Of a stretch of 64,000 bases of DNA, positions 14,250 through 14,646 are shown one piece after another. Below the pieces are notes generated by a model that was not told the DNA's origin, made no database searches, and was given only the letters and a program-made list of their open reading frames with translations. Position 1 is the stretch's first letter, and each line of letters begins with the position of its first letter. This DNA is from Escherichia phage 212. Both the position numbers and the translations under genes were made by a program. The stretch lies in the sequence record PQ765507; one strand, written 5' to 3'.

Positions 14250-14646
14250 GTTATAGGTGATTCGCTACCTTAGTGCGAGCTAAAATCGAGGAGCCGTCGA
14301 ACCGTCTGATTAATGATTTGCGAATCATTATAGTTTTAAGACCCCGGCAGTTTTACGGTGTACCTCTTGAATGTTATTCTTATAGCGGCAAGTGCATGCT
14401 ACCCCGAGGTGATGGCCAATCGGGAGTACGCCTCAAGGCCTATATATCCATCAGTATATATCTTATCCTCGAGAAATCGAACCCGGAACCTTTAAGCTAA
14501 CGGTGTGCAACAGATAAGAGCTATAAGGTATGATGACGAGGTTTATGGTTATCCTGTCGTTAAATATCCGAAACCTAATGTTCCCTTCGAGGGCTTGCGC
14601 AGGCAATGTCAATAAGTCCTGCATTCTATTTTAAAGAGAATTTAAT

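Follow-up and report, generated by a model that had tools for sequence, protein, structure and literature searches.

A ToxI-like pseudoknot unit and further exchangeable RNA modules between rIII and 30.9 in a T4-like phage

The DNA analysed here (the window) is a 64,000-nt stretch of Escherichia phage 212 (PQ765507). Among T4-like phages its best match is Shigella phage SP18 (Gaprivervirus), the two being 98% identical across the cd-31-rIII-30.x region. Three genes of this region, all on the + strand, frame the segment under study: gp31 (13490-13837), its downstream neighbour rIII (13995-14249, 84 aa) and 30.9 (14647-14808, 53 aa, basic). The gene rIII was assigned from the ORF list and from homology to annotated SP18 and T4 rIII, and 30.9 from the ORF list, phrog_1427 and the SP18 annotation. 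The true start of rIII is most likely the ATG at 13995, giving a predicted 84-aa protein; this short form was preferred because it matches the 82-aa T4 protein. In the SP18 annotation a longer rIII ORF (129 aa from the ATG at 13860; 13860-14249) overlaps a conserved hairpin, motif D, which is described at the end, and also a late-promoter-like TATAAATA box read from the sequence at 13842-13849. Because the 84-aa form from 13995 matches T4 rIII, the long form is probably a mis-annotation.

Between the rIII stop (14249) and the 30.9 start (14647) lie 397 nt, positions 14250-14646, which form both the 3' UTR of rIII and the 5' UTR of 30.9. An initial annotation, made from the sequence of the window, had singled out this spacer, had seen no convincing ORF in it, and had offered a structured non-coding RNA or regulatory element, a decayed gene, an intron remnant or a replication element as explanations. 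The spacer is indeed present, but it is longer than the ∼370 bp given there. When ORFs shorter than 80 aa are disregarded, only one ORF-free stretch of the window exceeds 14250-14625 in length. Mechanical ORFs within the gap measure 75 aa (GTG start, 14273-14500), 36, 34 and 53 aa, and none had a family match in Pfam or PHROG; some submitters label the stretch as ‘hypothetical proteins’ in phage records. In all 17 homologues (17/17) of its central part (module B, below) stop codons occur in all six frames, and the variable columns fall evenly on the three codon positions (26/26/26). A tRNA/tmRNA scan found none.

A scan of 14250-14646 found neither sigma-70-like promoters nor intrinsic terminators. 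The first terminator-like site 3' of rIII on the + strand is a stem at 14813-14832 followed by a T run, and it lies after 30.9. With no promoter or terminator in the gap, the spacer is therefore read through as part of the rIII-30.9 mRNA. Expression of rIII from early, middle and late promoters has been described (PMC9409239). That the spacer is structured, non-coding and transcribed is well supported.

The initial annotation held that a lack of both a transcript and conservation in related phages would speak against a functional element. The spacer is present in about 1000 T4-like records (998 phage records matched), and its make-up is mosaic. The T4 version, 244 nt long, consists of a first part of ∼125 nt (A) and a last part of ∼120 nt (C), whereas the window phage has A + B + C, in which A is separated from C by ∼145 nt (B) without counterpart in T4. 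Module B is found at 80-96% identity in T4-like phages of Klebsiella, Enterobacter, Raoultella and Erwinia (94-96% in the Klebsiella and Enterobacter phages), and its neighbours differ. The modules are located between rIII and 30.9 in all these phages, and their order varies: Klebsiella phages carry the 5' half of C, the ToxI-like unit described below, B, the 3' half of C and motif D, and in Cronus B is the first module. Other phages (L100, L030 and L122) have a different insert of ∼50 nt (TACTATCACGCGTCAGAAAAAGGTTATCTGTCTAAGTCGTGGTTGG) at the junction of A and C. This junction (14376/14529 in the window) thus appears from the alignments to be a hotspot of cassette insertion. Modules A2 (defined below), B and C gave chance matches only in blastn searches of plasmids and 5,426 E. 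coli genomes.

The 8-bp hairpin described in the initial annotation lies exactly where stated, as a perfect stem (14311-14318 with 14323-14330) closing a 4-nt loop. The 64-kb window contains ∼13 distinct perfect stems of at least 8 bp, so that an 8-bp hairpin alone is statistically unremarkable, and the folding energy of the whole spacer is no better than that of shuffled sequence (z = -0.17). The structure is judged real from conservation and covariation across phages, not from thermodynamics. Alignment with related phages, one of the checks proposed in the initial annotation, revealed compensatory base changes in four modules on the + strand, which agrees with its option of a structured regulatory RNA. 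It had noticed the local hairpin and missed the modular make-up and the ToxI-like unit. A covariance-model search, also proposed there, gave no Rfam match at the gathering score, either for the spacer or anywhere in the window. At E ≤ 10 over 13700-14900 the search returned a 16.6-bit ToxI match and obvious chance matches and nothing else; no match fell inside modules A2, B or C1, and one chance match (14.2 bits, minus strand, 14619-14689) touches the 3' end of C.

Module B (14382-14524, +) is a four-way-junction RNA of ∼145 nt defined by covariation among 17 distinct homologues. It comprises a closing stem P1, an arm P2/P3, a hairpin P4, and an arm P5 carrying a GNRA hairpin P6 and P7, around a junction without unpaired nucleotides. 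In its 47 pairs 98.6% of the cells are paired, and 22 of the 47 are changed on both sides, vs. 9.2 ± 1.8 after shuffling (0 of 500 shuffles reached this number) and 2-7 in slid controls. The loops of P3 (14410-14415) and P4 (14448-14453) form a 6-bp kissing interaction that is 100% paired in the 17 homologues, and three of its six pairs covary. The closing stem is made of flanking sequence that differs between phages with the pairing kept, and several junction and loop segments are invariant. At one pair U-G is invariant in 15 of the 17 homologues. Read from the opposite strand, such invariant G-U pairs would turn into A-C mismatches, which points to a function at the RNA level, on the + strand.

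The B model scored 179.7 bits at 14382-14524, and model searches found no second copy of B or motif D in the window. B has no Rfam family match. A relationship to the T4 stable RNAs rnaC and rnaD was considered and rejected, since no model match was obtained with the filters off. When 185,579 genomes of bacteria and archaea were scanned with a B pattern, 14 matches turned up, none of which passed the B model; the taxa were unrelated and for the most part environmental (actinomycetes and metagenome-assembled genomes). B appears to be an independently folding RNA domain that is exchanged horizontally. At a guess, it could act in trans, either as a ribozyme or by engaging an RNA-binding protein, for which it would be a scaffold or a decoy. 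It is strongly supported that B and motif D are structured RNAs of no known family; they may sit unnamed in a catalogue of ∼8,500 candidate viral RNAs (PMC10690425).

Upstream of B, module A2 (14288-14366, +) folds in the RNAalifold consensus of 11 phages as a long imperfect hairpin, whose tip is the perfect 8-bp stem and its UGCG loop at 14311-14330. Two of the 26 consensus pairs carry compensatory changes, and this number is low because the aligned sequences vary little. A2 is conserved in T4, and S16 retains the base of the hairpin only. In this model, A2 most likely would protect or process an RNA end.

Downstream of B, module C1 (14535-14578, +) is a predicted H-type pseudoknot in which S1 pairs 14535-14541 with 14553-14558 and S2 pairs the loop 14544-14550 with 14572-14578. 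Across 13 phages 81% of its positions are paired vs. 68% in shuffles, and eight pairs show double changes vs. one to four in slid controls; pair 12-33, for example, is AU in six, UA in six and GC in one, and pair 13-32 is CG in nine and GC in four. Two small candidate hairpins follow on the + strand, both read directly from the aligned gaps: C2 (CCCU-UCG-AGGG, 14583-14593), which covaries in Cronus (GCC...GGC), and C3 (GCAGG...CCUGC, 14599-14622), which covaries in S16 (GAACUGG...CCAGUUC) and is exchanged for motif D or other hairpins in other phages. The spacer ends with a hairpin read from the sequence (14623-14646, +), in which AUUCU (14623-27) pairs with AGAAU (14637-41). The 14623-14641 hairpin would cover the Shine-Dalgarno-like AAGAGA of 30.9, and other phages have analogous hairpins over the ribosome-binding site ahead of 30.9 or rIII. 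The most likely role of the pseudoknot and hairpins beside 30.9 is to mask its ribosome-binding site and in this way to regulate its translation.

[quoted passage not shown] The Rfam ToxI model scored 16.6 bits there (E = 5.6); this model is unusable as a test, since it missed the genuine pECA1039 array at E ≤ 1. Because of the weak match, the segment was compared with the ToxI repeat of pECA1039, which is present at 100% in pECA1039 itself and also in many plasmids of E. coli and Salmonella. A single ToxI-like (pseudo-ToxI) unit was delimited at 14255-14286 (+) on the basis of blastn matches, identities and covariation of its pseudoknot. The pseudoknot core occupies 14255-14278, and both of its 4-bp stems are able to form (S1, 14255-58 with 14267-70; S2, 14262-65 with 14275-78). 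It is followed by an A-rich 3' tail (14279-14286) containing AAAAU at 14282-14286 and, within it, a ToxN-type AA^AU site at 14283-14286. The 5' flank reads UAAGUU, with AAGU instead of AAAU. At 14286-14291 the start of a truncated second repeat was recognized by comparison with the pU90-1, Lelliottia and phiTE arrays (TCGAGG vs. TCTAGG or TCCAGG in genuine repeats), and the locus therefore amounts to ∼1.2 units.

In a blastn search of 7.3 Gb of plasmid sequence with 14240-14310, the top matches were ToxI arrays (E = 1e-3). ToxI-type repeat arrays accounted for seven of the 11 plasmid records matched, and the three plasmid arrays that were retrieved lie directly upstream of ToxN/AbiQ-family toxin genes. 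The whole spacer matched only two ToxI arrays in 28 Gb of E. coli genomes, both through query positions 1-42. The unit is identical at 32/36 positions to repeat 3 of the pU90-1 ToxI (an E. coli plasmid, beside toxN), at 31/36 to the first unit of phiTE pseudo-ToxI and at 30/37 to pECA1039 ToxI. Overall the identities were 30-33 of 36-37, and genuine ToxIs of different systems are no closer to one another, sharing 29-30/37. A sister allele (VR26 type), found in about 77 T4-like records (VR7/20/26, JK45, mar005P1 and others), matches the phiTE ncRNA ‘pseudo-ToxI’ at E = 3e-6; its 25-nt core is identical to that of phiTE (25/25) and its tail is pECA1039-like.

Among 18 phage and plasmid units, pairing in S1 and S2 is kept in 94% of cells vs. 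29-56% in slid controls. Two S2 pairs covary (CG:13/UA:5 and GC:15/AU:3), and in S1 a G-C pair is replaced by A-U in L048; S1 of the T4-type allele contains an A-G mismatch. Residues G5, A6, U12, A19/A20, G21 and U22 are conserved in ToxI (PMC8860590). Of these, G5, A6, U12, G21 and U22, which that paper describes as structurally critical, are present in the window unit. Its loop L2 is 1 nt shorter than in any genuine ToxI compared, which leaves only one of the two A-minor adenines; L2 is variable in length across the ToxI family (Blower 2012, PMC3401426).

The unit is retained in Tequatrovirus, Gaprivervirus, Gelderlandvirus and the Klebsiella T4-like phages, and is absent from the PG7, Cronus and JS98-like lineages. 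In one JS98-like phage (L035) precisely one unit is missing (GAAGTAA/AATCGAGG), leaving 0.2 vs. 1.2 units. Between the window phage and SP18, six of the 39 positions of the unit differ, compared with six of 358 in the rest of the spacer. We take this clean loss, the concentration of differences in the unit and the occurrence of ToxI-like units in other phages (below) as evolutionary hints of a function. Searches of the T4-like records with a trimer query revealed no repeat expansion, as a single 39-bp place was matched in every record. A tblastn search of the window with three ToxN proteins gave chance matches only (E ≥ 0.5), and the neighbours of the unit are rIII and 30.9; tandem arrangement and toxN linkage, both features of a genuine antitoxin locus, are thus lacking. 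Taken together, the sequence and pairing comparisons provide good support for placing the first unit in the ToxI RNA family, as a phage-borne single copy comparable to phiTE pseudo-ToxI. In the papers searched, which dealt with phiTE, the Serratia T4-family phages, TifA, T4 evolution, the E. coli ToxIN structure and a survey of type III systems, no ToxI-like unit in T4-like phages is reported.

The closest known counterpart comes from Pectobacterium phage phiTE, the pseudo-ToxI described by Blower et al. 2012 (PMC3475682; GenBank JQ015307, ncRNA 106714-106772). Both are phage-borne, intergenic ToxI-like RNAs without a toxN gene, and both have a fractional repeat number (1.5 in phiTE, ∼1.2 in the window phage). 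phiTE belongs to the Vequintavirinae and its locus lies beside a tRNA gene, whereas the window unit is fused to the rIII stop codon of a T4-like phage, has the shorter L2, occurs once in every record and has other structured modules after it. With genuine ToxI the unit shares membership of the 36-nt family, the capacity to form an S1/S2 pseudoknot, G5, A6, U12, G21 and U22, and the A-rich tail with AA^AU. Genuine ToxI, however, consists of three to 10 tandem repeats immediately ahead of toxN, from which a terminator separates them, and the window has one unit, no toxN and a non-canonical 5' site. RNA anti-CRISPRs are reportedly solitary repeat units in phages, as told by Camara-Wilpert et al. 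in 2023; the resemblance proposed here is that one copy of a host immune RNA repeat would serve as an effector decoy, although the immune system and the RNA are different and there is no sequence or structural relation.

For the remaining modules the likenesses lie with other phage elements. T7 RNase III processing hairpins and T4 translational operators such as the gene 32 pseudoknot are intercistronic RNA signals of phages. The spacer resembles them in its long imperfect hairpins, in its pseudoknots between genes of a polycistronic unit and in the hairpins over ribosome-binding sites, but has no sequence similarity to them (gene 32 is also mentioned in PMC10690425). Like PeSL elements (Arbiol et al. 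2010, PMC2839356), the modules are short non-coding cassettes shuffled intergenically among T4-type genomes. Identity with PeSL was rejected: a PeSL combines a sigma-70-like early promoter with a G/C stem-loop terminator, neither of which occurs in 14250-14646, and the modules are supported as RNA folds.

ToxI-like units were also seen in Pectobacterium, Salmonella 7-11-like, N4/G7C-like, T5-like and Vibrio phages. Many unrelated phage groups carry units that are unannotated and 89-100% identical to pECA1039 ToxI, among them Salmonella 7-11/SE131, E. coli Bas88/XT18, Salmonella Kenya-K36, Klebsiella PWKp9S, Vibrio JSF10/12 and Erwinia IT22. These occur as single or about two copies, and that of phiTE alone is annotated. 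Viral contig L011 has a single ToxI-like unit together with group I intron matches at 2471-2692 and 3010-3222 (87.6 and 40 bits). The first pseudo-ToxI unit of phiTE (L185, 106714-106772) is identical at 36/36 positions to the genuine ToxI repeat in the toxIN locus of a Lelliottia amnigena plasmid (L169), and by this identity it looks like the captured cognate antitoxin of another ToxIN and not a degenerate pECA1039 copy.

With moderate confidence we read the spacer as a transcribed non-coding array of exchangeable RNA modules that combines an antitoxin decoy with RNAs for processing and translational control. During infection, the rIII-30.9 mRNA would supply a ToxI-like pseudoknot with a 3' ToxN-type AA^AU site. 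Shut-off of host transcription would deplete the labile ToxI of the host and free ToxN; free ToxN could then cut the AA^AU site of the unit and stay bound to the product, or be titrated by the unit, and its sequestration would delay or weaken the cleavage of phage mRNA. The unit might also be a seed for repeat expansion or a homology patch for toxI capture.

The unit may thus neutralize ToxN, which fits a report that T4 is not aborted by the Pectobacterium ToxIN (PMC5772629). This proposal is tempered by what is known of phiTE, in which a single pseudo-ToxI repeat did not neutralize over-expressed ToxN and the wild-type phage with 1.5 repeats is still aborted, escape needing more, and by the abortion of T4 by an E. 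coli ToxIN, from which it escapes via the protein TifA. Nothing ties modules A2, B and C to defence. The broader proposal that the rIII-30.9 spacer of T4-like phages is an ‘RNA island’ of exchangeable structured cassettes, in which at least B and motif D, as new RNA classes, would join the ToxI pseudoknot in working in trans against host defence proteins that bind RNA, whether as decoys or as effectors, is speculative and in our estimate rather doubtful.

The main rival is a purely cis-acting UTR, in which all modules serve the processing, stability and translation of the rIII-30.9 mRNA as exonuclease barriers, as processing sites for RNase III, RNase E or RegB and as controls of 30.9 translation, with no anti-defence role. 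The likeness to ToxI would then reflect common descent or the convergence of a stable small pseudoknot. We regard this as possible though not probable. It accords with the location of the spacer within one transcription unit and with the final hairpin over the 30.9 ribosome-binding site; the modules are always found between rIII and 30.9, the ToxI-like unit is always single, and GGAG motifs, which are RegB targets, occur in and beside it. Against this, the near-identity to genuine ToxI goes beyond the stems to the loops and the A-rich tail with its AA^AU site, which convergence would not produce. Clean loss of the unit in one phage and the concentration of allele replacement within it do not suit the cis view either, and module B shifts relative to the other modules, unlike an element with a fixed cis role. 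A functionless repeat left behind by past recombination with a toxIN plasmid is unlikely. Recombination of phiTE with plasmid toxI is known, the T4-type allele is degenerate in S1, and the unit is missing from PG7, Cronus and the JS98-like phages, all of which favour a neutral relic. Against it, several genera have kept the unit and show compensatory changes in S1 as well as S2, and pairing would not survive neutral decay; ToxI-like units in unrelated phage groups tell against it too.

The alternatives offered in the initial annotation fared differently from its structured RNA. That the locus works as DNA, as a replication origin, a recombination hotspot or a mobile promoter cassette of the PeSL type, is very unlikely. 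The region is a junction of cassette swapping and T4-type phages do shuffle at PeSL elements (PMC2839356), but the spacer has no sigma-70-like promoter or terminator, the covariation is that of RNA helices, and the invariant U-G pairs would be mismatched on the other strand and point to a + strand RNA; we found no support for a replication element. Least probable of all, to the point of being hardly credible, is a decayed protein gene or an intron remnant. The mechanical ORFs of 34-75 aa and the ‘hypothetical proteins’ annotated by some submitters are what could be cited for it. The decayed gene lacks support because no frame is conserved, every frame carries stops in 17/17 B homologues, there is no codon-position bias and indels break the frames; Pfam, PHROG and intron models gave no match, and the same tool did detect group I introns elsewhere.

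If the ‘RNA island’ proposal is true, the 3' UTR of rIII would be an RNA counter-defence locus and not a passive linker. ToxIN abortive infection is studied with T4 and its relatives as the model phages. A conserved mimic of the antitoxin within the 3' UTR of rIII would set an RNA layer beside the protein inhibitor TifA and could help to explain differences in sensitivity between ToxIN variants. Decoys made of a single immune-RNA repeat would then not be confined to CRISPR or phiTE, because ToxI-like units occur in several phage groups unrelated to each other. Hundreds of sequenced phages of the therapeutic type carry B and motif D, and in them the stretch is often annotated as a ‘hypothetical protein’.

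Motif D, at 13902-13967 (+) between gp31 and rIII, is a hairpin of ∼60 nt whose internal loops (CUACAAC ... GAAGAACGUG) are invariant and whose tip carries a GNRA cap. Compensatory changes were seen in 12 of its 16 pairs among nine sequences. It had no Rfam match and is present in a single copy in the window (85.5 bits). The motif stands ahead of rIII in T4 and the window phage, and just upstream of 30.9 in PG7, the Klebsiella phages and Cronus. It was also found in three viral contigs (L113, 3699-3764; L152, 6014-6079; L066, 3122-3191) that had no rIII, 30.9, ToxI-like or module-B match and may not be T4-like. In L113 and L066 motif D is followed by 270-380 nt without a convincing ORF, and this ORF-poor stretch may be a further non-coding RNA array. 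Elsewhere in the window, stretches without an ORF of at least 80 aa lie at 32465-32915 (451 nt) and at 35994-36309 (316 nt), the latter beginning at a terminator-like hairpin (AAAGGGAC...GTCCCTTT).
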